A stretch of 64,000 nucleotides of DNA from Dictyostelium discoideum (taxonomy: Eukaryota). Positions 4,940 to 57,843 of the stretch are shown piece after piece (the first letter of the stretch is position 1; every line of letters starts with the position of its first letter). A program made the position numbers and the translations under genes. Under the pieces are notes generated by a model, which searched no databases, was not told the DNA's origin, and saw only the letters and a program-made list of their open reading frames with translations. The stretch spans positions 1,120,001 to 1,184,000 of the forward strand of contig CM000155.2 of the NCBI GenBank assembly GCA_000004695.1, in the 5' to 3' direction.

Positions 4940-5021
4940 GACATCGTAGCGAAGTGGTCTAACGCGTTTGACTTGAAATCAAATCTCCTAGGAGGCGCAG
5001 GTTCGAACCCTGCCGATGTCG
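4940..5021 (+). tRNA. tRNA-Ser (anticodon UGA), 82 nt with a long variable arm.
   Basis: GACATCG...CGATGTC+G forms a 7-bp acceptor stem. The anticodon stem is TTTGA/TCAAA with loop CTTGAAA, giving anticodon TGA. The long variable arm is TCTCCTAGGAGGC. The T arm is GCAGGTTCGAACCCTGC. Confidence 0.9.
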
Positions 5022-9629: not shown

Positions 9630-9711
9630 CGACATCGGCAGGGTTCGAACCTGCGCCTCCTAGGAGATTTGATTTCAAGTCAAACGCGTTAGACCACTTC
9701 GCTACGATGTC
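9630..9711 (-). tRNA. tRNA-Ser (UGA), copy 2.
   Basis: Exact reverse complement of the 82-nt gene at 4940-5021. About 28 bp of 5' flank (cagctataaattttgattttcatcaaag) and 49 bp of 3' flank are shared with copy 1. Confidence 0.9.
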
Positions 9712-39632: not shown

Positions 39633-40147
39633 ATGAAATTAATTATCTCATTATTAATTCTCATTTGTACATTAAAATTATCATTTGGATGTGAAGGTGA
39701 CTTCAATCCAACCACTGCCAATATTGGTCAATGTTCAGCAAGTCAAACCGTTGGTTGGGTACCAGCTGCACCAGAGTATGGAACTGAGACATTAAAAGTT
39801 TGGACTCCAGAAGAATTAAGCCCAGAAGAAAGAGATATGCATGAACATCGTATGGCCTACATTTTAGCAATCTCAAAACAAACCAGAAGAAAATTTGTCA
39901 CCTCCATCTATGCTCAAAATGGTACTCTTTTATGCCATGGTGTTAATACTGGTAAACCAAATTTAATGACTCATGGTGAAGTTGCTGCAATTAACAATTG
40001 TACATCATTATATAACATAAGTTCATACACTAATATGACTCTCTACACAACTGGTGAACCCTGCGCGATGTGCTTAAGTATTAGGACCAACAATTAATTA
40101 TCATTATTATTTTTTTATTTATATATTTATTAATTTTTTAATTATTT

Positions 40148-40194
<47 letters not shown>

Positions 40195-40758
40195 CTTTCT
40201 TCCCTACAGGCTAGTGCATTATTATGGTTAGACTTCAAAGTTGTTGTTTGGGGTACTTGGAATTCTGATCTTATGTGTAAAGTTTGTATGGGTCAAATTC
40301 CAATGGATTCAAACTATATTTTCTCACGTTACTATGGTGTTAGAGCAACTCCACCAACTTTAATTGGTGGTATTCTTCGTAATGAAACTGATGCTTGGTT
40401 CACACCATATTGTAATAACCCAGCTTCACCATACTATGTTAAACCAAAATGTGCATGTTACAACTCAACTTCACCATTGGTAATTAATCAAGTCTCTTCC
40501 TCTACTTGGTATGAAGGCCCAAACAACACCAAATACAGTCAATTCGATGGTAAAATCTTAAACAATGCTAATTACGCTGTTAACAATCCAACTTTCACAT
40601 CCTCACCATCAGGTGTTAAACCACGTACTATTTGGGGTTTAAAGAATGAAGGTGGTGATATTTGGTCATTATCATATTACCCAGTCATTAGCGGAAATGG
40701 TGGAGCTTTCCCATTTGGTTATATTAGCACTCAAGAAATTACCTTTAAAGCTAATTAA
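39633..40758 (+). CDS. Secreted CDA/TadA-fold zinc deaminase with a novel Cys-containing C-terminal domain, paralog 1. Exon 1 is 39633..40073 and exon 2 is 40210..40758. The intron donor reads TTAAGT instead of GTAAGT. As it stands the sequence encodes only a 154-aa deaminase-domain protein, ending with the stop at 40095-40097.
   Basis: Signal peptide MKLIISLLILICTLKLSFG. Helix-1 HEHRMAYILAISK. Zinc ligands HGEVAAINNC ...(28 aa)... YTTGEPCAMC, i.e. the [HC]-[AGV]-E ... PCxxC CMP/dCMP/tRNA-adenosine deaminase signature. Several N-glycosylation sequons are present. Exon 2 begins ASALLWLDFKVVVWG, the continuation of the PCxMCxxAllw helix. It is in frame only if the 136-nt TT...AG interval is removed. 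Confidence 0.6.
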
Positions 40759-40867
40759 TTATTTATTACCAATTAAAAAGTCTTACCGACTTTATATAAT
40801 CATAAAAAAAAAAAAAAAAAAAATTAATCCGAATAAATTAATAAAAAGTAATACCTTTTTGTTCACA

Positions 40868-41160
<293 letters not shown>

Positions 41161-41453
41161 TAATATCTTAACTTCACTATTTGGAGGTGAAATTTTACCA
41201 ATTGTTGGGGTAACATCTGGCTTAGTAAATGGAGCAATCGAAGGCTTTACAAAGGGGGTTTTTAATTGGTAATTTAATTTAATCTACAAATAACTAACCA
41301 ATTCTCATCAATATTTTGGACTGAAAAAAAAAAAAAAAAAGAAAATCTATTGAAATAGTAAAAATAATTGGAGAATTGGAATATTAAAAAAAGTAATATA
41401 AAAAGTATTTAATTAAATATAATAATAAAAAAAAAATCCGCATTTTTTATATT

Positions 41454-41990
41454 TTATTTAATATAAAGAGATATAATTAACATAAGTTTATGCAGTTGGT
41501 TGGAAAGCAATTTGGTCTTCACCATCGATGATGTAACCGAATGAGAAGGTTTGACCTGTTGGATGACTGGATACCATTGGAGAGCCCAAGTATTTTTGGT
41601 TTCATCAACAGCAAGACCCCAGATTGAGTTTGGACGGAGTGGAGATGAGGTGAAGGTTGGGTTGGTGACGGTTACTGAACCAGTGTTGGTGATGATACCA
41701 CCGAATTGAGAGACAGTTTTACCGTTTTCGAACCATGAGGAGTAAAGAGTTTGATCGATCTTTAATGGTGAAGTAGTGTTGGTACAGACACATTGTGGTT
41801 TAATGTAATAGATTGAAGTTGGTTTGCTACAGTATGAACCGAAACAGGCGTCAGCTTCAGTACGTAAGACACCACCGATAACTCTTGGTGGGCTAGCTCT
41901 TAAACCATAGTAACGACCCAAGATGTATGAGGAATCCATTGGGATGTTTGACATTCAGATTTTGCAAAGTAAATCACTGTTGAAGGTACC
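41454..41990 (-). pseudogene. Truncated, frameshifted 3' copy of the deaminase gene, C-terminal domain only.
   Basis: Identical to 56701-57240 apart from a 1-bp deletion (cctgttgg here versus cctggttgg there) that shifts the frame (...WYPVIQQVKPSHS). The homology breaks at 41990. The shared 3' flank is AAAATCCGCATT...ATAAGTTTATGCAGTTGG. Confidence 0.8.
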
Positions 41991-43269
41991 CCAGACAATG
42001 TGCTGAATGGTCTATTCGTGCAAACCGGGTAATAAAAGGTATTTTTTTTAAAAAAAAAAATGGACTACATGGGCTGAACTGTTTATTAGTGCCAACCGGG
42101 CTGATACAAGGTTTTTTTTTTTTTAAAAAAAAATAAATTGACTGCAAAGATTGACTGATAAAAGGTTTTTTTTTTAAAATGGGCAAAAATAAGGTTTTAA
42201 ATTTTTGATACGGACTGCACGGGCTAATCGAGATAAAAAAAAAAATATCACACTGACTACAAATTATTTTTTTAAAATAAAAAAGGACTACACAGGCTTA
42301 TAAAAAGGTTTTTTTTTAAAAAATTAAAAAAAAAAAAAAATAAAAACAATAAAAAAACGATAAAAACATTACAATTTTTTAATTTTTTTATTTTTTCTTT
42401 TTTAAATGTATTTAAAAAATAAAATATATTTAATAAGAAAATATGAATATATTGTTTGAGACTTTGCAAAAAAAAAAAAAAACCTGAATGTATGTAGTAT
42501 TTTTTATTATTAATTTTTATTTTTTTTTATTTTTATTTTCTGGAAAATTAAAATAAAAAATCACTTTGCATATTATTTTAAGTTTTGTATTATTAATAAA
42601 TAAATAAATTATTTTACATTCTTATTTAGGAGAAAACCAATAAAATAAAAAATAATAAAATGAAATAATAAATAACGTTAATTTTTTTTTTTTTAGGTAA
42701 TGTGTGGTAAATTTTGAAAAAAAAATAAAATTTAATTAAAGTAATAACTAACAATTTTACATTTATATTTAGGAGTTTAAATCAAAAAAAATGAAATTAA
42801 AAATAATCAAATTAATAATATTAATAAATAAATAAAAAAAAAAAAAAAAAAAAAAATAAAATTACCGCATTATTTCATTTTTATTATTTTTTATTGAATA
42901 CTTTTTTTTTAAAAATAGATGGTTTTTTTAAAAATATTTAAGCCCACGTATATCCTAAAAAAACCTTTAAATAAATAACCGTTTCAAAAAAAGACGGTTA
43001 TTTATTTAAATATCTAAAAAAATAATTTTGTAAGGGCTGTACTCAACCCTTTAAAGTGCTGTACGGGCTATGCCCAAAATTAAAAACTTTGAGCACAACC
43101 CGCACAGCACTCTTAAGTGTTGCGCACAGTCCTTACAATGTTTTTACAATTTTGTTTGGGCTGTTGGGGCTTATAGTGCCAAAGTTAAAATTTTTCTCAG
43201 TGGTCGTGTATCTTTTTATATATATATGTTTTACAATTGAACTATACCAGATTATTTAATTTATCTAAT

Positions 43270-44220
43270 TGTTAGCTGGTTGTAAAGAAATACCTTCTAA
43301 TAATTCTTCATTTTCATCGGTATAATCGACCAAGTCCAAACCAATTTTATTACTCTTGTCTTTATGAATTTGTTTTTTACATGAACGTTCAGTTCTGATA
43401 GCTTCAAAATACTTTGATAATATTAGTACTGCTAATGATGCTTTATTTTTATAGGTGGAACTAAAAACATTCTTTACAATACTAAGTTTGCTCTAAGGTG
43501 TAACATTTCTTGAATTCCCAGAATCTTTTTTTAATTTTAAACCTTGCTTTAAAGGTTGATTTTGAATTTGTTTACATGTTGCAGTGATACCATGATTTGA
43601 TAATAATTTATCTCTAATAGTTGATACACTTGGATCATCTTCAAATAATTTTTTTAAATGGAGTTGATTGGTTTCATCCCATAATTGATCACCAATAAAT
43701 TTAAAATTTGGAAGTTTAGTTAAATTATAGTTTCTTCCATCAACCAAAGTTGTGAAGAATTTTGATTAGCAACATTTTCCATCATTTGTGGTCTGTTAGC
43801 ATATGCAAAGAGAGCAGTTACAAAAAGATTTTCTTGATGCATGTCCCATGCTTGGCCAACCTTAGTACCATTATTAAATTTAACCTCTTGCAAGATTGGA
43901 ATTTCTTTCTTGGCACCTTCTATTCTGTCAACAAAACTATTAACTTGAGTACTATTAATGTTGATACCAGAGCACTTCATTTCAACAGAGGTATGAATAA
44001 TTTCCACCATGCATGACGAAGGCTTTAACAAAGGCTTGGATTGATGGCAAACTCCAGAGATATGCATCTTTGCCAGAGTAAACAAGTTGGCAGATACTTT
44101 GATAGAATGAGAACATTCGGTTATCGAAATTTAACTTTCCTTCAGGTTGTTGAATACCTTCACACAAATTATTAGGAATTAAACTAATATTTGGATTATC
44201 AAAAGTACTAAAATCAACAA
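43270..44220 (-). pseudogene. Degenerate copy (multiple frameshifts) of the 345-aa gene at 50735-51772.
   Basis: ORF fragments 43493..43747, 43720..44085 and 43982..44167 each align to successive parts of the 50735-51772 protein (KLPNFKFIGDQLWDETNQLHLK..., GTKVGQAWD.HQENLFVTALFAYANRPQM, CEGIQQPEGK). A T~110 homopolymer lies upstream at 44222-44350. Confidence 0.75.
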
Positions 44221-44257
44221 AATGAACATTTTTTTTTTTTTTTGAAACATATTTATT

Positions 44258-44352
<95 letters not shown>

Positions 44353-44565
44353 TTTACATGTATGTTTATTTATTTATTTATATTTATTTATTATTATATT
44401 CATTTGAAACCTTTTATTCATTATATTTTTTTTTTTAATAAATTATAGATATTATATATATAGAATACTATGGGTAAAAGGAAATAATAATGTTTGTTTG
44501 TAGTTGAAAATATTAAAATTAAAAATAAAAAAAAAAATATAACAAAAAAGATTTTATTTTAATAA

Positions 44566-44606
<41 letters not shown>

Positions 44607-45562
44607 CTTAAAATTTTTTTTTAAAAATTGTGTTTTTATATTTTCCAAACATACTTCATTTAAGGGGGGTCAGATTTACAATCATTTTAAAGGAATGGGG
44701 TTATAAATTTTCTTAAAATAATATTTTAAAATATCTTTGAAGTTAAACATATTTATGTATTTATATAATGATACGATTAGTTTATCAAAATGTGTTTGGT
44801 TGTTTATTATTATAATTGGTTGTTTATTATTATTATTATTTTTTTTAATTAATTACTGCATTTCTTTATTAGATTTAATAATAGTTTAGAAATAATAAAA
44901 TAATATATAAAAAATAAAAAAAAATAATATTAGTTGAAATAATAAAATTTTATATGGTATAATAAATAATTAAATAGTTTGAAATAATATATTAGTAAAA
45001 TTAAATAGTAAAATTAAAATAATAATTTGATACATATATTATTTTATAGATAAATAGTTCAATCATTGAAATAATAACAACAACAACAATAATAATAATA
45101 ATAATTATATATATATCATATTAATAATTAAAACTAGTTTGAAATTAATGGTAATTTAAAGGTTGATATAAATAAATTCAAAAAAATTTGTATGTATTAT
45201 TTTAGTTACTACCTACTACTTTTAAACATGTTGTATTAACATTATATTCAAATTTTTTATTACAATTCCTATAGATACAACTGTCTTTGATAAAAACATT
45301 TCACCTCAAATTAGTAAGTATTTTATTTTTATTATAGTATAGGTAACACTAGCGTTATTCTACAACTTTTTATATATTAACCTTGATAATAAATAATTCT
45401 TTAATCCGATTACTATAAAGATGAAATTTTAGATCTATTTGAATTTGGTATGTTTTAAATTTTATTATTATTATTTATAATTGCAATTATTAATTCTCAA
45501 CATTGGTGTATTAATATAAATTCAATAATTATTTAGATACTACAAAATCATCATATGAAGAT

Positions 45563-46070
45563 GTGATTGAAGAATACAGTAAATTTGAAAATGATTCTCT
45601 TGGATCATTTGAATATCTTGATTACAGTGATTTACGTTTATTATCTAAAAGAAAGTGGAATAATAAAGAAGCTTTAATCATAGGTAATGGTAAAAGTAAT
45701 TATAAAACAACTGTACAAATAAAAGGTGATTTGTTAGATAAAGGTTATTTTAGAACTGAACTTGCTATTGATACATAGTTTGATAGAAATAAGTATTAAT
45801 AAATAAAATGGTTAAAAATTTTAAAAGTACTCAAGAAACCATCACCAGTCATTTCAAGAAATTGGAGTCCAGATGAACAAAAAGCATTAATGGTTGAAGT
45901 TTCTACACTTGGTAATAAATCTGAAATCAACTGGTTTTTCATTTCTCAACAACTCTTTTTAAAAGGTATTAGTAGAAATGCAAGAGAATGTCAAAGAAAA
46001 CATGAATCAATCCAATATGTTGGTCTTTCAGGTAATCCAAAAGCTAAATTTAAAGGAACTTTTGATTAGT
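45563..46070 (+). pseudogene. Disrupted copy of the Myb/SANT-like gene at 53788-54303.
   Basis: Same N-terminal sequence (IEEYSKFENDSLGSFE). A stop follows ELAIDT, and there are frameshifts through the SANT-like region. Confidence 0.7.
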
Positions 46071-46359
46071 TTGTCATATATTTTAAATAAATAACATCTT
46101 CAATATAAAAAATTTCCAATAATTTTATTTTCTTTTTTTTTTGTTATTGATAGTACTTATAACAAAAAATGAATGATAAATAATTAAATTCTAAAAATAA
46201 AATTTTTGATTTAAAAAATAAAATAAAAAATTCAAAAAATAGAATGATTACACGGTGTTTATGATAATAATTTTTTTTTTAATTTTAAAAATTTTTTTAT
46301 TTTAATTTTTAATTTTTTTTTTTATTTTTTTTACCAATTCCAGTCTGTAAACAACATTC

Positions 46360-46696
46360 ATGTATCGATCGTTGTCTACTGGTCCATGTCGATCATGTAA
46401 GTTAAAAACAAGTCCATATGTCGTTGTGGAAAGACCATTGAAAATAGACAATGTGGTTCAACAAGATATGACAAAGCATTTACTTGTGATGTTTGCAAAA
46501 TTCATGAATGTTGTCCAAGCACACCAACACATGATGAAGCAGGTAACCAAGATTGTATAATTTATTCTACATTTTCTTCACTCGATCCAAATTCACAAGA
46601 ATATGCAAATAAATTACAAATTGAGCCATTACAGTCTATATCAATAGTATCACCAAAAATTATTAAAAAAATTGAACCAATCCTTATAAAGATTGT

Positions 46697-47970: not shown

Positions 47971-48477
47971 TTATGCAGTTGGTTGGAAAGCAATTTGGTC
48001 TTCACCGTCGATGATGTAACCGAATGAGAAAGTTTGACCTGGTTGGATGACTGGATACCATTGGAGAGCCCAAGTATTTTTGGTTTCATCAACAGCAAGA
48101 CCCCAGATTGAGTTTGGACGGAGTGGAGATGAGGTGAAGATTGGGTTGGTGACGGTTACTGAACCAGTGTTGGTGATGATACCACCGAATTGAGAGACAG
48201 TTTTACCGTTTTCAAACCATGAGGAGTAACGAGTTTGATCAATCTTTAATGGTGAAGTAGTGTTGGTACAGACACATTGTGGTTTAATGTAATAGATTGA
48301 AGTTGGTTTGCTACAGTATGAACCGAACCAGGCGTCAGCTTCAGTACGTAAAACACCACCGATAACTCTTGGTGGGCTAGCTCTTAAACCATAGTAACGA
48401 CCAAAGATGTATGAGGAATCCATTGGGATGTTTGACATACAGATTTTGCAAAGTAAATCACTGTTGAAGGTACCCAT
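47971..48477 (-). pseudogene. Second truncated 3' copy of the deaminase gene (C-terminal domain, frame intact, no deaminase exon).
   Basis: Near-identical to 56701-57210. The homology breaks at about 48476 (gaaggtaccca|tcttataag), and Trp is replaced by an ATG at the breakpoint. More than 170 bp of shared 3' flank (47800-47970 versus 56530-56700). Confidence 0.8.
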
Positions 48478-50070: not shown

Positions 50071-50734
50071 TTTTATGTTTTAAAAAATGAGAAATTACAA
50101 TAGTATTATTTCCTATTAATTGTTGTATATTATTAAATTATAGGTTTATGTTTTAAAAAATGAGAAATTACAATAGTATAATTTCTCAAAATATGGTAGA
50201 TAAATAAATTTTTTATAGTTTAATGACAAATTAATATTCAATTTTAATTAAAATATTATTAGATTTTATCAATTTTTAATTTATATTAAAATATATTTTT
50301 ATTATGGCCAGATTCTTTTTTATTATTTTATGATAATTTAATAATAAAGTGTGATTAATTATTAATTAGAAATTAATATTAGTTTGTTATAAATTTTATT
50401 AAATTATAATATCATTTCTTAAAATATAAGTTTTTGCGGGTTTAATTTCTCACAAAATAGTAAAATTTCTTAGTTTTTTTTCTCTGGTGAAATAAAATAA
50501 TATAAAATAAAATAAAATAAAATAAAACAAAATAAAACAAAACAAAACAAAACAATTTGAACCCATTTCATCTTCTAAATACACGAAAATTAAAATAAAA
50601 AACACATGTGTTGCAACACTTTTTTTTTTTATTACTTTTTTTATTATTTTTTTTATTATTTTTTTTTTATGATCTTTTTATATATATATTTTACAATTTT
50701 ACTATTCTATAATACCAGATTATTTTATTTAGAT

Positions 50735-51769
50735 CTAATTGCTAGCTGGTTGTAAAGAAATACCATCTAATAATTCTTCTTCATTTTCATCGGTATAATC
50801 GACCAAGTCCAAACCAATTTTAATACTCTTGTCTTTATTAATTTGTTTTTTACATGAACGTTCAGTTCTGATAGCTTCGAAATACTTTGATAATATTAGT
50901 ACTGCTAATGATGCTTTATTTTTATAGGTGGAACTAAAAACATTCTTTACAATACTAAGTTCTTCTTTGCTCCAAGAGGTAACATTTCTTGAATAAGTAG
51001 AAACTTTTTTTAATTTTAAACCTTGCTTTAAAAGTTGACTTTGAATTTGTTTACTTGTTACAGTGATACCATGATTTGATAATAATTTATCTCTAATAGT
51101 TGATACACTTGGATCATCTTCAAATAATGTTTTTAAATGGAGTTGATTGGTTTCATCCCATAATTGATCACCAATAAATTTAAAATTAGGAAGTTTAGTT
51201 AAATTATAGTTTCTTCCATCAACCAAATTTGTGAAGAATTTTGGACTTAAATTATAACCATTTAAATGAAAAATGTTGCTAATCATTTGTGGTCTGTTAG
51301 CATATGCAAAGAGAGCAGTTACAAAAAGATTTTCTTGATGCTCGTCCCATGCTTGGCCAACCTTAGTACCATTATTAAATTTAACCTCTTGCAAGATTGT
51401 TGGAATCTCTATCTTGGCACCTTCTATTCTGTAAACAAAACTTTTAACTTGAGAACCATTAACGTTGATACCAGAGCACTTCATTTCAACAGAGGTATGA
51501 GTTTTATTTCCACCATGCATGACGAAAGCTCTAACAAAAGCTTGGATTGATGGCAAAGTCCAGAGATATGCATCTTTGCCAGAGTAAACAAGTTGGCAGA
51601 TACTTTGATAGAATGAGAACATTCGGTTATCGAAAAAAAATAATACCTTTCCTTCAGGTTGTTGAATACCTTCACACAAATTATTAGGAATTAAACTAAT
51701 ATTTGGATTATCCAAAGTACTAAAATCAACAACATGAACATTTTTTTTTGTTTTTGAAACCTTTTTACT

Positions 51770-51772
<3 letters not shown>
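50735..51772 (-). CDS. Hypothetical 345-aa protein with a C-terminal Myb/SANT-like segment.
   Basis: Intact ORF. The C-terminus reads TSWSKEELSIVKNVFSSTYKNKASLAVLILSKYFEAIRTERSCKKQI (W-x...-RxxxxCxxQ SANT-like pattern). The degenerate paralog is at 43270-44220. A poly-T lies upstream at 51775-51820. Confidence 0.5.
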
Positions 51773-51821
<49 letters not shown>

Positions 51822-52607
51822 TTAATAAATTATTGATATTATATATATATAATATTATGGGTATAGTTGAAAATATGAAAATTAAAAATAAAAAAAAAAT
51901 ATAACAAAAAAGATTTTATTTTAATAACAAAAATAAAAAAAAAAAAAAAAAAAAAAAAATCTTAAAATTTTTTTTTAAAAATTGTGTTTTTATATTTTCT
52001 AAACATACTTCATTTAAGGGGGTCAGATTTACAATCATTTTAAAGAGATGGGGGGTTATAAATTTTCTTAAAATAATATTTTAAAATATCTTTGAAGTTA
52101 AACATATTTTAAAATAATATTTTAAAATATCTTTGAAGTTAAACATATTTATGTATTTATATAAATATATATAATGATACGATTAGTTTATCAAAATGTG
52201 TTTGGTTGTTTATTATTATAATTGGTTGTTTATTATTATTATTTTTTTTTTTTTTAATTAATTACTGCATTTCTTTATTATTAGATTTAATAATAGTTTA
52301 GAAATAATAAAATAATATATAAAAAATAAAAAAAAATAATATTAGTTTGAAATAATAAAATTTTATATGGTATAATAAATAATTAAATAGTTTAAAATAA
52401 TATTAGTAAAATTAAATAGTAAAATTAAAATAATAATTTGATACATATATTATTTTATAGATAAATAGTTCAATCATTGAAATAATAACAACAACAACAA
52501 CAACAATAATAATAATAATTATATATATATCATATTAATAATTAAAGCTAGTTTGATAAATTATTATATATTAGCATATTAAATAAAATTAATAATAATT
52601 TATAAAA

Positions 52608-53354
52608 ATGGATGAACCTTCAACAGATAAAATTTTAATTGGTGCTCAAATCATTACAACAGTTATAACATTGTTCACTGGTGTTTTTGAATTTATTATT
52701 GCTGCAAAAAGCAAAATGAAAAGAATGAAAAGTGAACAAATGTTTTCAGTAAATCAAGATGGATTAATACATATTATTAAATCACTATTACCAGGTCGTA
52801 ATATAATTTTCATCAGCAATGCACCAACCAGCACCACAGATCCATCATTCAACAGCCAGACAATGAAAAACTTTTTAAAAGTAATATTTAGATTACTACC
52901 GTTTTTCATTGGTGCTGTCTTTATACATTTAAATATAATACCGTTTCATCATTTAATTATTTTTACTGAAAATGGTAAATGGTACTTTGATAGTATACAA
53001 GAAGAATTAATACCTATTGTAAAAGAAAGATTAAAGCAAATAATGTCATCTCAACCTGATGTCATATTTGCATGTGGTGCTGTGGTAAGGGATATATTTT
53101 ATATGTATCTTGAAGAAGGTTCAATTGAAATGGTTGGTAATAATATATTCGTGTATATAAATAAAGATGGTACGAAAAAAACTATTATTTGTTTTGTTCC
53201 ACACTTTTGTACTCGTAAAGATCATTGGAAGTTTATTGCTCAAGGATTATTATTTATTCATACTCATTTCAAATTATCAACATTCAATACAAATTATTTT
53301 GAAAAAAACAAACCAGAAATTAATTTTAAAGATATTAGATATATAGTTCTTTAA
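52608..53354 (+). CDS. Hypothetical 248-aa protein with an N-terminal TM helix. It is encoded inside an ~0.8 kb copy-specific insertion flanked by a 9-bp direct repeat.
   Basis: Intact ORF. 52557-53364 is absent from the paralogous block at 45130-45145. CTAGTTTGA occurs at 52548-52556 and 53356-53364. Confidence 0.45.
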   Translation: MDEPSTDKILIGAQIITTVITLFTGVFEFIIAAKSKMKRMKSEQMFSVNQDGLIHIIKSLLPGRNIIFISNAPTSTTDPSFNSQTMKNFLKVIFRLLPFFIGAVFIHLNIIPFHHLIIFTENGKWYFDSIQEELIPIVKERLKQIMSSQPDVIFACGAVVRDIFYMYLEEGSIEMVGNNIFVYINKDGTKKTIICFVPHFCTRKDHWKFIAQGLLFIHTHFKLSTFNTNYFEKNKPEINFKDIRYIVL

Positions 53355-53787
53355 ACTAGTTTGAAATTAATGGTAATTTAAAGGTTGATATAAATAAATT
53401 CAAAAAAATTTGTATGTATTATTATTTTAGTTACTACCTACTACTTTTAAACATGTTGTATTAACATTATATTCAAATTTTTTATTACAATTCCTATAGA
53501 TACAACTGTCTCTGACAAAAACATTTCACCTCAAAGTAGTAAGTATTTTATTTTTATTATAGTATAGGTAACGCTAGCGTTATTCTACAACTTTTTATAT
53601 ATTAACCTTGATAATAAATAATTCTTTAATCCGATTACTATAAAGATGAAATTTTAGATCTATTTGAATTTGGTATGTTTTAAATTTTATTATTATTATT
53701 TATAATTGCAATTATTAATTCTCAACATTGGTGTATTAATATAAATTCAATAATTATTTAGATACTACAAAATCATCATATGAAGAT

Positions 53788-54303
53788 GTGATTGAAGAAT
53801 ACAGTAAATTTGAAAATGATTCTCTTGGATCATTTGAAAATCCTGATTACAGTGGTTTCCATTTATTATCTAAAAGAAAGTGGAATAATAAAGAAGCTTT
53901 AATCGTAGGTATTGGTAAAAGTAATAATAAAACAACTGTACAAATAAAAGGTGATTTGTTAGATAAAGGTTATTTTAGAACTGAACTTGCTATTGATACA
54001 TACTTTGATAGAAATAAGGTATTAATAAATAAAATGGTTAAAAATTTTAAAAGTACTCAAGAAATTATAAAACCATCACCAGTCATTTCAGGAAATTGGA
54101 GTCTAGATGAACAAAAAGCATTAATGGTTGAAGTTTCTACACTTGGTAATAAATCTGAAATCAACTGGTTTTTCATTTCTAAACAACTCTTTTTAAAAGG
54201 TATTAGTAGAAATGCAAGAGAATGTCAAAGAAAACATGAATCAATCCAATATGTTGGTCTTTCAGGTAATCCAAAAGGTAAATTTAAAAGAACTTTTGAT
54301 TAG
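53788..54303 (+). CDS. Myb/SANT-domain protein, one exon of a multi-exon gene. The displayed ORF starts at an alternative GTG start.
   Basis: GNWSLDEQKALMVEVSTLGNKSEINWFFISKQLFLKGISRNARECQRKHESIQ is a SANT/Myb repeat. Upstream, DEILDLFEF is followed by a GTATGT donor at about 53675 and a tatttag acceptor at about 53762, and it splices in frame (DTTKSSYEDVIEEY...). No in-frame ATG lies immediately upstream. Confidence 0.55.
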   Translation: MIEEYSKFENDSLGSFENPDYSGFHLLSKRKWNNKEALIVGIGKSNNKTTVQIKGDLLDKGYFRTELAIDTYFDRNKVLINKMVKNFKSTQEIIKPSPVISGNWSLDEQKALMVEVSTLGNKSEINWFFISKQLFLKGISRNARECQRKHESIQYVGLSGNPKGKFKRTFD

Positions 54304-54641
54304 TTTGTCATATATAAATAAATAACATATTCAATATAAAAAATTTCCAATAATTTTATTTTCTTTTTTTTTTTTTATTGATAGTACTTTTAACAAAAAA
54401 TGAATGTAAATAATTAAATTGTAAAAATATAATTTTTGATTTAAAAAATAAAATAAAAAATTCAAAAAATAAAATAATTACACCGGGTGTCTAATTTGAA
54501 TGTTACTATTAATAATTTTTTTTTTAATTTTAAAAATATTTTTATTTTAATTTTTTATTTTTTTTTTTATTTTTTTTACCAATTCCAGTCTGTAAACAAA
54601 ATCATTAAATACTTAATTAATTTTAAATTAAATTTAATTTT

Positions 54642-56700: not shown

Positions 56701-57335
56701 TTATGCAGTTGGTTGGAAAGCAATTTGGTCTTCACCGTCGATGATGTAACCGAATGAGAAAGTTTGACCTGGTTGGATGACTGGATACCATTGGAGAGCC
56801 CAAGTATTTTTGGTTTCATCAACAGCAAGACCCCAGATTGAGTTTGGACGGAGTGGAGATGAGGTGAAGGTTGGGTTGGTGACGGTTACTGAACCAGTGT
56901 TGGTGATGATACCACCGAATTGGGAGACAGTTTTACCGTTTTCAAACCATGAGGAGTAACGAGTTTGATCGATCTTTAATGGTGAAGTAGTGTTGGTACA
57001 GACACATTGTGGTTTGATGTAATAGATTGAAGTTGGTTTGCTACAGTATGAACCGAACCAGGCGTCAGCTTCAGTACGTAAGACACCACCGATAACTCTT
57101 GGTGGGCTAGCTCTTAAACCATAGTAACGGCCAAAGATGTATGAGGAATCCATTGGGATGTTTGACATACAGATTTTGCAAAGTAAATCACTGTTGAAGG
57201 TACCCCAGACAATGGTTTTGAAGTCAGCCCACAAAAGAGCAGCTGAGCACATGGCGCATGGCTCTATAGGAGTTTGTTAGTTGTTCAATTGATTGATCAC
57301 ATGATCATTCATTATTATTTTTTAAAAAAATAAAA

Positions 57336-57395
<60 letters not shown>

Positions 57396-57843
57396 AGTAT
57401 TTGTAGATTAAAACATTATTATTACATATTAATTACTTACCTCCAGAAGTGTAAAGAGTGTAGTTGGTGAAAGAGGTGATACCGTGTAAAGCAGTACAGT
57501 TGTTGATGGCAACGATTTCACCATGTGAAATGATATTTGGTTTACCAGTGTTGACACCAAGACACATTAAAGTACCATTTTGGTGGTAGATTGAAGCAAC
57601 GAATTTCTTATTTTGTTGTTTGGCGATGGCAAGGACGTAAGCCATACGTTCTTCGTGCATACCTAATTCTTGTGGATCGAGATCAGCTGGAGTGAGAACT
57701 TGAGCATTGTCGGTTGGTTTCCAGCTTACTTTTTGAGTGGCTGTACATTCACCGATGGTTGAAATGTTTGGATTGAATTCATCGCATGCAAATGATAATG
57801 CAATAAATGCGAGTAAAATAGTTAATAATAAAGCAATCTTCAT
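56701..57843 (-). CDS. Secreted CDA/TadA-fold zinc deaminase with a Cys-containing C-terminal domain, paralog 2 (intact). It has 2 exons: 57843..57441 and 57263..56701 (321 aa).
   Basis: Signal peptide MKIALLLTILLAFIALSFA. HEERMAYVLAIAK. HGEIVAINNC...YTLYTSGG|EPCAMCSAALLWADFKTIVWG spans the intron, with a GTAAGT donor in phase 1 and a cctatag acceptor. The C-terminal domain is NSDLLCKICMSNIPMDSSYIFGRYYGLRASPP...CSKPTSIYYIKPQCVCTNTTSP...WYPVIQPGQTFSFGYIIDGEDQIAFQPTA. Confidence 0.8.

Follow-up and report, generated by a model that had tools for sequence, protein, structure and literature searches.

Loss of the intron donor G in a secreted deaminase-CBM49 gene of Dictyostelium discoideum AX4: probably a young, naturally polymorphic null allele

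The question raised by this locus is whether a gene whose only intron begins with TT can still yield a functional protein, and how such a donor came about. The gene, DDB_G0292080 (Q54DQ7; paralog 1), lies at 39633..40758 on the forward strand of the window, which is the whole 64,000-nt stretch of D. discoideum DNA that was analyzed. It encodes a signal peptide, a predicted CDA-type zinc deaminase domain and a CBM49 domain, and is compared throughout with DDB_G0292096 ('CDD'; paralog 2). The original prediction was that paralog 1 is either a splice-dead pseudogene or the source of a truncated, deaminase-only protein of 154 aa. Coordinates of the features are listed in Table 1; a slash within a sequence marks an exon-intron boundary.

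The predicted product and the donor lesion

The protein obtained by joining 40073 to 40210 was matched by the Pfam deaminase family PF00383 (E = 7e-11, which exceeds the gathering cut-off) and by the CBM49 profile PF09478 (36.8 bits against a cut-off of 23.4, residues 239-320), and the CBM49 region was predicted with high confidence by AlphaFold to form a beta-sandwich. The HxE and PCxxC residues H114, E116, C144 and C147 (paralog 1 numbering) do not vary among 20 homologues. The best sequence matches in the PDB were FCY1, Tad2, TadA and guanine deaminase (E = 1e-13 to 1e-10), and the best fold matches were to TadA. By its motifs and fold, the product is a predicted zinc deaminase of the CDA superfamily.

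Exon 1 ends with GAA CCC TGC GCG ATG TGC (40056..40073) and is followed from 40074 by TTAAGTATT; the intron is in phase 0, after the second Cys codon. Position 40074 is a T, as had been read originally, and the resulting donor, TTAAGT, departs from the GT of U2-type introns. The remaining U2-type consensus is in place, with AAGT at donor positions +3 to +6 (40076..40079), a long T run at 40148..40195 and the acceptor ccctacag, whose last base is 40209 (context ttcttccctacag/GCT AGT GCA TTA TTA TGG). The claim that exon 2 continues helix alpha3 exactly was borne out: the 40073/40210 join gives an open frame of 329 aa, with EPCAMCASALLW in the peptide across the join, and aligns without gaps with paralog 2 and all orthologues. 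The expected read-through stop was likewise present. When left unspliced, the frame continues with L S I R T N N and ends at TAA (40095..40097), seven codons past the break, so that ORF 39633..40097 encodes 154 aa.

The introns of the two paralogs, at first placed 5 codons apart, proved to be separated by 17 nt and to differ in phase (phase 0 in paralog 1, phase 1 in paralog 2). At the paralog 1 junction, paralog 2 is uninterrupted and reads TGC GCC ATG TGC TCA. The D. purpureum orthologue has no intron, and the sole intron of the C. fasciculata orthologue is at another place. Intron sliding or independent gain may lie behind the offset between the paralogs.

All frame-keeping GT-AG, GC-AG, AT-AC and TT-AG introns at paralog 1 were enumerated. 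No canonical intron in the full enumeration spared both the frame and the PCxxC/alpha3 core, and the TT-AG intron alone spared the catalytic core. The GT-AG and GC-AG alternatives either use the natural acceptor, with a frameshift and an immediate stop, or use a cryptic AG in exon 2 and delete part of the core. Judged against the predicted fold, the whole core (strands beta1 to beta5, with helix alpha3 following PCxxC) is not encoded by any one canonically spliced AX4 mRNA. Three annotation efforts arrived at three different work-around introns, each with a cryptic AG in exon 2: 40078/40240 in AX4, 40070/40214 in ACTFIT and the equivalent of 40078/40231 in ACTFIW. The intron of the official AX4 model (XP_629815 / Q54DQ7, 320 aa) removes nine residues of the catalytic helix. 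Splicing as a U12-type intron was rejected, since the donor is neither ATATCC nor GTATCC and the minor spliceosome, whose snRNAs were undetected in D. discoideum, is absent from this species (PMC11347168).

Table 1. Features of paralog 1, paralog 2 and its partial copies in the window
Feature	Coordinates	Strand	Description
Exon 1, paralog 1	39633..40073	+	Signal peptide and N-terminal half of the deaminase, alpha1 to beta3 (sequence; AlphaFold secondary structure)
HxE motif, exon 1	39972..39980	+	H114/E116 (sequence)
PCxxC motif, exon 1	40059..40073	+	P143, C144, C147 (sequence)
Patch TGCGCGATGTGCT	40062..40074	+	Matches a paralog-2 allele exactly; the T at 40074 lies within it (multi-strain codon alignment of paralogs 1 and 2)
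Cryptic GT donors	40070 (GTGCTT), 40078 (GTATTA)	+	With acceptor 40209, both frameshift to an immediate stop (enumeration, manual translation)
Intron orthologous to that of relatives	40074..40209	+	136 nt; starts TTAAGT in place of GTAAGT; poly-T and ccctacag acceptor intact
Read-through tail	40074..40097	+	LSIRTNN and TAA; 154-aa product upon intron retention
Exon 2, paralog 1	40210..40758	+	Remainder of alpha3, beta4, alpha4, beta5, alpha5, CBM49 (residues about 228-328), stop codon
Cryptic AG acceptors within exon 2	40213..40240	+	Intron end 40214, 40231 or 40240; employed by three published models
5'-truncated, frameshifted copy	41454..41999	-	Covers the 3' half of paralog 2 and converges on paralog 1
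Second 5'-truncated copy	47971..48474	-	3' half of paralog 2 (sequence)
Paralog 2, DDB_G0292096 ('CDD')	56701..57843	-	Intact (sequence)
Paralog 2 intron	57440..57264	-	GTAAGT...TATAG; within a Glu codon (G/AG, phase 1), 17 nt upstream of the paralog 1 intron position

Donor state among strains and the paralog-2-like patch

The TT donor was also found in a second, AX4-like assembly (GCA_054883475.1), which differs from the window at other sites, and in the divergent D. discoideum strain ACTFIW (GCA_054859355.1). A GT donor was found in D. discoideum ACTFIR and in five sister-species genes (from two D. cf. discoideum strains, D. citrinum, D. firmibasis and D. dimigraforme), and the orthologous introns of eight other genes begin with GTAAGT, GTATGT, GTAATG, GTAAAG or GTAAAT. 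Because G is kept in ACTFIR and the five sister-species genes, this comparison identifies G at +1 as the ancestral state. One of the GT strains is that of assembly GCA_054859385.1. The single T-to-G change at 40074 that had been proposed to restore the donor does so, GTAAGT being the exact sequence of ACTFIR. Both TT haplotypes, AX4 and ACTFIW, still have donor positions +2 to +9 (TAAGTATT), together with the poly-T tract and the AG acceptor. The sequence flanking the T differs between the two within 10 nt on both sides, a pattern that speaks for recent, separate origins of the T and against a TT allele maintained for long.

In AX4 the ancestral boundary TGT/GTAAGT has become TGC/TTAAGT, and 13 bases at the boundary match, base for base, a stretch of continuous coding sequence in a paralog-2 allele (smallest possible tract, 40064..40074). 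The junction codons are TGC GCG ATG TGC/T in AX4 paralog 1 and TGC GCG ATG TGC TCC in ACTFIW paralog 2, and the other paralog-1 genes have TGT ACT ATG TGT/G. AX4 paralog 1 agrees with paralog 2 at 9 of 286 informative sites, five of which (40064, 40065, 40067, 40073 and 40074) are consecutive at the junction. The clustering gave P = 1e-5 in a post hoc permutation test (majority rule, GT-bearing references only, intron +1 site added); in the first version of the test, with unanimous paralog-1 references, the codon-146 sites were lost and P was 0.06. Because of the five-site run, and because paralog 2 is uninterrupted at that position, a patch templated by paralog 2 probably overwrote the donor G.

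Paralog 1 of ACTFIY (D. cf. discoideum, assembly GCA_054859205.1) also bears a paralog-2 patch here, significant with 7 sites in a row, and for this reason the junction appears prone to such patches. The ACTFIY intron appears to be displaced by 4 nt (AT/GTAAAT...TAG/GTGT). In wild strains the place of the nearer truncated fragment in the window is taken by a complete paralog 2, which converges on paralog 1 at a distance of about 0.6-0.7 kb. In AX4 this adjoining copy, the proposed donor, is now truncated and without the patch region, and the intact paralog 2 differs from the patch by one base (GCC instead of GCG). As far as sequence comparison can tell, the locus has the marks of gene conversion, namely clustered donor-matching changes and a linked donor allele in the same species. 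For the T of ACTFIW, no matching allele was present among the paralog-2 and paralog-3 alleles seen (the closest alleles read TGT TCA/TCT ATG TGT G, in which the slash separates alternative codons). A plain point mutation is therefore possible in ACTFIW, and hence also in AX4, with the patch arriving separately.

Selection on paralog 1 and explanations of the TT donor

Both exons of paralog 1 are open and free of secondary lesions. The AX4 branch carries 12 synonymous and 3 non-synonymous substitutions (probability of so few non-synonymous changes under neutrality, 2.5e-6), the neutral phase occupies less than about 8% of the branch, and purifying selection extends beyond CBM49. Between the AX4 and ACTFIW haplotypes dS was 0.089 and dN/dS was 0.12. 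Thus, a disabling lesion, the loss of G(+1), was found, and relaxed constraint or secondary lesions were not. The intact exons and the 12 to 3 ratio indicate that the lesion is young or tolerated, and that any inactivation is recent. The description of paralog 1 as a splice-dead pseudogene accordingly holds for the loss of the ancestral G and the want of a good canonical alternative, but the exons are intact and constrained, and the term pseudogenization needs qualifying. Were the T identical by descent in AX4 and ACTFIW, purifying selection would have operated with a TT donor in place, which would argue that the gene still works.

At DDB_G0292080, which encodes a secreted deaminase-CBM49 protein, the AX4 lineage probably carries a null allele that is young and naturally polymorphic. 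A linked copy of paralog 2 would have donated a short patch to paralog 1 by microconversion or template switching, and the patch would have overrun the exon end by one base, exchanging G(+1) for the T of the next Ser codon of paralog 2. From general spliceosome biochemistry, splicing would be expected to fail at the TT donor, at the steps of U1/U6 recognition and first catalysis. In transcripts that retained the intron, translation would end after seven added codons; in those that joined the weak GT at 40070 or 40078 to the natural acceptor, it would end at once. The resulting product would be without alpha3, beta4, beta5, alpha5 and the entire CBM49, and no functional protein would be made. 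The intact paralog 2, which is secreted and associated with multilamellar bodies, could cover the function, and the null allele would be too recent for further damage to have accumulated.

If the spliceosome still removed the TT-AG intron at the orthologous positions, even with low efficiency, the full 329-aa functional protein would result. Such splicing would account for the intact exons and the perfectly aligned 40073/40210 join, for the strong purifying selection both on the AX4 branch and between the TT haplotypes, and for the survival, in both haplotypes, of the other donor positions, the poly-T tract and the AG. No position of U2-type introns is more invariant than G(+1), and without it splicing is normally blocked. 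The G is retained in all six GT-bearing relatives, and the differences flanking the T in AX4 and ACTFIW favour recent independent origins; TT-AG splicing is thus considered unlikely. Nearly as unlikely, if slightly more so, is cryptic canonical splicing, by which a shortened protein with a crippled deaminase and an intact secreted CBM49 would be produced. Introns 40070/40214 (EPCA-I-ALLW), 40078/40240 (the official 320 aa) and 40078/40231 are all GT-AG and in frame, they are those of the published models, and selection could act on the CBM49 part. However, their AGs lie 5 to 31 nt downstream of a strong natural acceptor and have no pyrimidine tract of their own, and GTGCTT and GTATTA match the GTAAGT-type donors of the family poorly. 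Either the second zinc-ligand Cys or most of alpha3 is lost, and the precomputed Pfam deaminase match is gone in the 326-aa model. Selection on the AX4 branch is not limited to CBM49, and the three annotations conflict, as ad hoc fixes would.

The other branch of the original prediction, a secreted stand-alone deaminase of 154 aa translated from unspliced mRNA, perhaps with separate expression of ORF 40273..40758, is very improbable. The 154-aa ORF does keep the signal peptide, HxE and PCxxC. In the AlphaFold prediction alpha3 (145-153), beta4 (158-163), beta5 (197-200) and alpha5 (204-214) are all past the break at residue 147, so that the truncation takes about 45% of the predicted domain. 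TadA-like structures align across about 150 residues, the alignments with TadA and FCY1-type deaminases span the entire domain of this length, and solved homologues need the full fold. The 154-aa protein was rejected on these grounds as not credible. The downstream ORF, of 161 aa, begins inside the deaminase domain and is without a signal peptide, and its separate expression is unsupported speculation. By exact-sequence look-up in the protein collection, the 154-aa product, the 161-aa ORF, the 329-aa product with its fragments and the truncated paralog-2 ORF were all unmatched, and neither paralog, the positive control paralog 2 included, had transcript-derived entries; the absence thus carries little weight against the 329-aa product or the two ORFs. 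A base-call or assembly error at 40074 has a negligible probability. The AX4 reference has known errors that forced odd gene models (PMC5282741), but TT is shared by the independent assembly GCA_054883475.1 and by the divergent ACTFIW, and this refutes an error.

Further look-ups bore on expression and on allele state. Scans of metagenomes for the spliced junction and for the TT and GT donor alleles gave no match, and a full-text search of the literature returned nothing for DDB_G0292080 or for a Dictyostelium CBM49 plus deaminase. Neither paralog is listed in the supplementary files of a de novo transcriptome study of D. discoideum. The paralog 2 protein was detected by mass spectrometry on secreted multilamellar bodies of the axenic strain DH1-10 (PMC4920372); paralog 1 (Q54DQ7) is not in the proteome tables of the same study, which is weak negative evidence.

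Tentatively, the staggered-intron junction of the paralogs may be a hot spot at which short templated patches remodel intron boundaries. The outcomes may include a killed 5' splice site (AX4, perhaps ACTFIW) and an intron moved by 4 nt (ACTFIY). In a more radical variant the TT-AG intron may still be spliced in D. discoideum, which would explain the purifying selection in two TT haplotypes.

Significance and comparison with known systems

The intron in the reference model of DDB_G0292080 is an invented one, and the locus merits a flag as a probable polymorphic null allele of the AX4/NC4 lineage. Laboratory strains are likely to make paralog 2 alone, a point to bear in mind when the secreted 'CDD' deaminases are knocked out or studied by proteomics. 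The locus would be a clear-cut natural case in which exchange between paralogs becomes mutagenic owing to the different placement of their introns. Together, the shifted ACTFIY intron and the AX4 lesion offer a small system for splice-site loss and intron sliding via short templated patches; the 4-nt shift, if true, would be a natural and mechanistically traceable case of intron sliding.

The intron-2 splice mutation of CYP21A2 that is copied from CYP21A1P is an example of microconversion. There, too, a very short tract from a linked and closely related gene brings in a base that does no harm in the donor but destroys or alters a splice signal in the recipient, giving a segregating null allele. 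The donor in that case is a pseudogene, whereas that of paralog 1 would be a functional paralog. Unlike in CYP21A2, the damage in paralog 1 would arise from introns 17 nt apart, with coding sequence overwriting the boundary, and conversion is read from the sequence pattern only. With unitary and polymorphic pseudogenes paralog 1 shares a single lesion, functional alleles in its own and sister species and possible redundancy with a paralog; unlike these, it does not yet have secondary lesions or relaxed constraint (12 S to 3 N). From the FCY1, TadA/Tad2 and guanine deaminase branch (PF00383), with which it has in common HxE/PCxxC and a predicted five-stranded alpha/beta core, paralog 1 differs by its added signal peptide and C-terminal CBM49, and by an AX4 coding sequence that is not canonically spliceable. 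DDB_G0292096 ('CDD'), which the window also encodes, shares the architecture of paralog 1 and about 48% protein identity with it; CDD has an intact GTAAGT intron elsewhere and a detected protein, whereas the protein of paralog 1 is unreported.

Protein architecture and status of the donor change

The ORFs at 39633..40097 and 40210..40758, in an AT-rich window (17-30% GC), are parts of paralog 1, DDB_G0292080 (XP_629815; UniProt Q54DQ7). Joining 40073 to 40210 gives a 329-aa product of three parts, with a hydrophobic, signal-like N-terminal segment, a deaminase domain and a C-terminal carbohydrate-binding CBM49 domain (PF09478, E = 5e-9). Among solved structures, profile searches matched yeast-type cytosine deaminase, Tad2, TadA and guanine deaminase (E = 1e-13 to 1e-10), and the AlphaFold model (mean pLDDT 81) superposed on TadA-like domains across ~150 residues. 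UniProt names Q54DQ7 only as "carbohydrate binding domain-containing protein" and paralog 2 as a CMP/dCMP-type deaminase; the latter, CDD, is among the four major proteins that mass spectrometry identified on multilamellar bodies, which the cells secrete (PMC4920372).

Features of the window, published gene models of paralog 1 and secondary structure of its AlphaFold model
Feature	Position	Strand	Remark
tRNA-Ser(TGA) gene	4940-5021	plus	
tRNA-Ser(TGA) gene	9630-9711	minus	
tRNA-Ser(TGA) gene	13095-13176	minus	
5'-truncated copy, 3' half of paralog 2	41454-41999	minus	frameshifted; neighbour of paralog 1
5'-truncated copy, 3' half of paralog 2	47971-48474	minus	
Paralog 2, DDB_G0292096	57843..56701	minus	"CDD" in the literature
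Official AX4 protein model	intron 40078/40240		320 aa; EPCAMCL-IVVWG
Second AX4-like assembly model	intron 40070/40214		326 aa; EPCAI-ALLW, second zinc-ligand Cys gone
Strain ACTFIW model	equivalent of intron 40078/40231		323 aa
alpha1	residues 64-84		
beta1	residues 89-93		
beta2	residues 99-104		
alpha2	residues 115-127		HxE
beta3	residues 136-141		
alpha3	residues 145-153		starts at PCxxC
beta4	residues 158-163		
beta5	residues 197-200		
alpha5	residues 204-214		
CBM49	residues 228-328		

The donor, read-through and acceptor of the original prediction are all present in the window. The frame at 40056..40073 (GAA CCC TGC GCG ATG TGC) is followed by TTAAGTATT; unspliced reading past 40073 gives LSIRTNN and a TAA stop at 40095..40097, and the acceptor is ttcttccctacag|GCT AGT GCA TTA TTA TGG, with 40209 as last intron base.

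Junctions were read in genomic loci of eight close relatives. A TT donor was found in ACTFIW, a divergent strain of D. discoideum, and in a second AX4-like assembly (GCA_054883475.1), which shares the gene order of the window and has the identical coding sequence. In a 5.1-kb comparison the latter differed from AX4 by 41 mismatches, all within 38338..39400, and was otherwise identical save for homopolymer lengths; since these 41 positions differ, it is no copy of the reference. The donor is GT in D. discoideum ACTFIR (TGT|GTAAGTATT), two D. cf. discoideum strains, D. citrinum, D. firmibasis and D. dimigraforme. All nine paralog-1 genes give a fully open frame once the orthologous intron is removed. 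From this distribution G is ancestral at 40074 and T a true polymorphism of D. discoideum; the base-call error named at the outset as a possible refutation is ruled out.

The mismatch block at 38338-39400 covers a small ORF (38745-38942) with a diverged paralog near 41157-41434, and may represent either a patch from a divergent haplotype or a further conversion tract. Strains labelled D. discoideum differ to an unusual degree at the paralog-1 locus (37614-41000, compared with the relatives' loci L001 and L003), with dS of 0.05-0.10 and mismatches in ~5% of aligned flanking DNA; nucleotide diversity across the genome is reported to average 0.003 (bioRxiv 10.1101/2025.10.22.684067). Long-lived haplotypes or divergent lineages could account for this. 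Directly downstream of paralog 1 lies an (ATT)n microsatellite (~280 nt, 40868-41150) whose length varies among assemblies.

Intron positions

The paralog-2 intron (57440..57264) splits a Glu codon (G|AG, phase 1) and that of paralog 1 comes directly after the codon for the second Cys (phase 0). Because of these positions the offset is 17 nt and not a whole number of codons, which corrects the five codons first reported. Two origins had been suggested, sliding and independent gain; simple whole-codon sliding is excluded by this phase-changing offset, and independent gain is possible. The phase-0 position is common to all paralog-1 orthologues bar that of D. cf. discoideum ACTFIY, and paralog 2 shares its phase-1 position, 17 nt upstream, with a third paralog. 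The D. purpureum orthologue has no introns and that of C. fasciculata a sole intron at codon 49/50. A loss in D. purpureum and a pair of gains within the D. discoideum complex are both possible; intron loss is more frequent than gain in these species (PMC4683709).

In ACTFIY (L005 2001-3058, GCA_054859205.1) the paralog-1 intron is displaced 4 nt upstream relative to all other paralog-1 genes. The junction reads ...GCA AT|GTAAAT...TTTTTAG|G TGT TCT GCT GCT CTT TTG TGG, exon 2 starting with a paralog-2-like patch, and the annotated protein (P0027) depends on it. This looks like 4-nt intron sliding via the tandem GTs within ATGTGTGTAAGT, together with a templated patch. The third paralog (322 aa, MNKIALLF...) lies in ACTFIW on a separate contig and locus (L009 1501-2630) and shares the motif EPCSMC with ACTFIW paralog 1; a protein search found no AX4 counterpart.

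Origin of the T at 40074

In the GT-bearing paralog-1 genes, except the separately patched ACTFIY, both Cys codons are TGT (TGT ACT/ACA ATG/TTA TGT | G); AX4 paralog 1 has TGC GCG ATG TGC | T. The paralog-2 allele adjoining paralog 1 in ACTFIW reads TGC GCG ATG TGC TCC, identical to AX4 paralog 1 over 13 nt (40062..40074), and the T of this match opens the following Ser codon in paralog 2, which is intronless there. Sites were taken as informative when at least four of five GT-bearing references (ACTFIR, ACTFIZ, D. citrinum, D. firmibasis and D. dimigraforme) agreed and differed from the ACTFIW paralog-2 allele. AX4 paralog 1 equals paralog 2 at 9 of 286 such sites, five of them consecutive (40064, 40065, 40067, 40073 and 40074; permutation P = 1e-5, in a post hoc test). 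The tract is bounded by 40061 upstream and 40075 downstream; homology is in any case confined to the 17 nt between the two intron positions. These matches suggest that a short templated patch was copied from paralog 2 into paralog 1, overran the exon end by one base and so destroyed the donor.

Paralog-2-like sequence recurs at the ACTFIY exon-2 start (TCT GCT GCT CTT TTG; a seven-site informative run matched by no permutation) and in the Ser codons flanking the ACTFIW paralog-1 intron on either side. In the wild strains ACTFIR and ACTFIW paralog 1 is followed, ~0.6-0.7 kb downstream, by a complete convergent paralog-2 copy. This neighbour, the likeliest patch donor, survives in AX4 as a 5'-truncated, frameshifted 3' fragment (41454..41999) without the patch region; the surviving AX4 paralog 2 differs from the patch by one base (GCC vs GCG).

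Independent, recurrent origins of T in AX4 and ACTFIW seem favoured over a shared old TT allele, because its flanks differ within 10 nt on each side and the remainder of ACTFIW paralog 1 has diverged less from GT-bearing ACTFIR (dS 0.051) than from AX4 (0.089). The nearest paralog-2 and paralog-3 alleles in ACTFIW have G next, not T; a T occupies precisely the donor-overlapping position in two of three paralog-2 alleles observed, so that recurrent templating is plausible.

Direct repeats of 3-4 kb (43210-46361 vs 50672-54605; 91-95% identical), bearing retroelement-like ORFs, separate the two truncated paralog-2 copies of AX4. Because only one paralog 2, a complete one, lies downstream of paralog 1 in wild strains, the AX4 lineage has undergone an insertion or segmental duplication here. 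Three tRNA-Ser(TGA) genes fall in the initial 14 kb of the window.

Age of the lesion and competing readings

Pairwise dN/dS between AX4 paralog 1 and other D. discoideum haplotypes is 0.12-0.13, and the private changes of the AX4 lineage comprise 12 synonymous and 3 non-synonymous (P = 2.5e-6 for so few under neutrality). A neutral phase exceeding ~8% of the AX4 branch is rejected at the 5% level, given a background dN/dS of 0.12. This pattern points to purifying selection nearly throughout the gene's history; the donor lesion would be either very recent or not abolishing function. Exact paralog-1 products were not found in the protein collection, which is uninformative because paralog 2 also has no transcript-derived entries; metagenome scans for the spliced junction and the TT/GT donor alleles, and literature searches for DDB_G0292080, found nothing. 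The multilamellar-body proteome tables of the axenic laboratory strain DH1-10 include Q54DP5 (paralog 2) and not Q54DQ7 (PMC4920372), a weak hint as to expression.

Paralog 1 is probably a young, polymorphic splice-dead allele, most likely arisen by paralog-templated microconversion. Every GT-AG, GC-AG, AT-AC and TT-AG intron keeping frame from ATG through stop was enumerated, and the TT-AG intron 40074..40209 alone keeps the conserved ...EPCAMC-ASALLWLDFK.... Residual TT-AG splicing is an unlikely rival reading. The U12 pathway is excluded because minor-spliceosome snRNAs are undetectable in Dictyostelium (PMC11347168). In-frame cryptic splicing, yielding a deaminase-dead CBM49 protein, is slightly less likely still: all canonical in-frame introns depend on cryptic exon-2 AGs, ending at 40214, 40231 or 40240 with 3, 6 or 9 residues lost from the PCxxC/alpha3 core. 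Three annotation pipelines have adopted three differing ad hoc introns, precisely these solutions. The GTs at 40070 (GTGCTT) and 40078 (GTATTA), used with the natural acceptor, both give a frameshift and an immediate stop.

Of the original alternatives, the splice-dead gene holds as the best reading and the truncated deaminase is highly improbable. The break falls after residue 147, and the 154-aa read-through and the two frameshifted cryptic-donor products would therefore lose alpha3, the C-terminal helix, two core strands out of five and CBM49 in its entirety; judged from the AlphaFold model, a folded stand-alone deaminase is not credible. Separate expression of the downstream ORF (40273..40758) is unsupported; its product would start within the deaminase domain and lack a signal peptide.

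The practical value of a splice-dead reading lies in correcting the reference annotation. The allele fits a known class, splice mutations arising via microconversion that yield segregating null alleles; what is instructive here is that the introns of the two paralogs are staggered, which would make exchange between the genes mutagenic.
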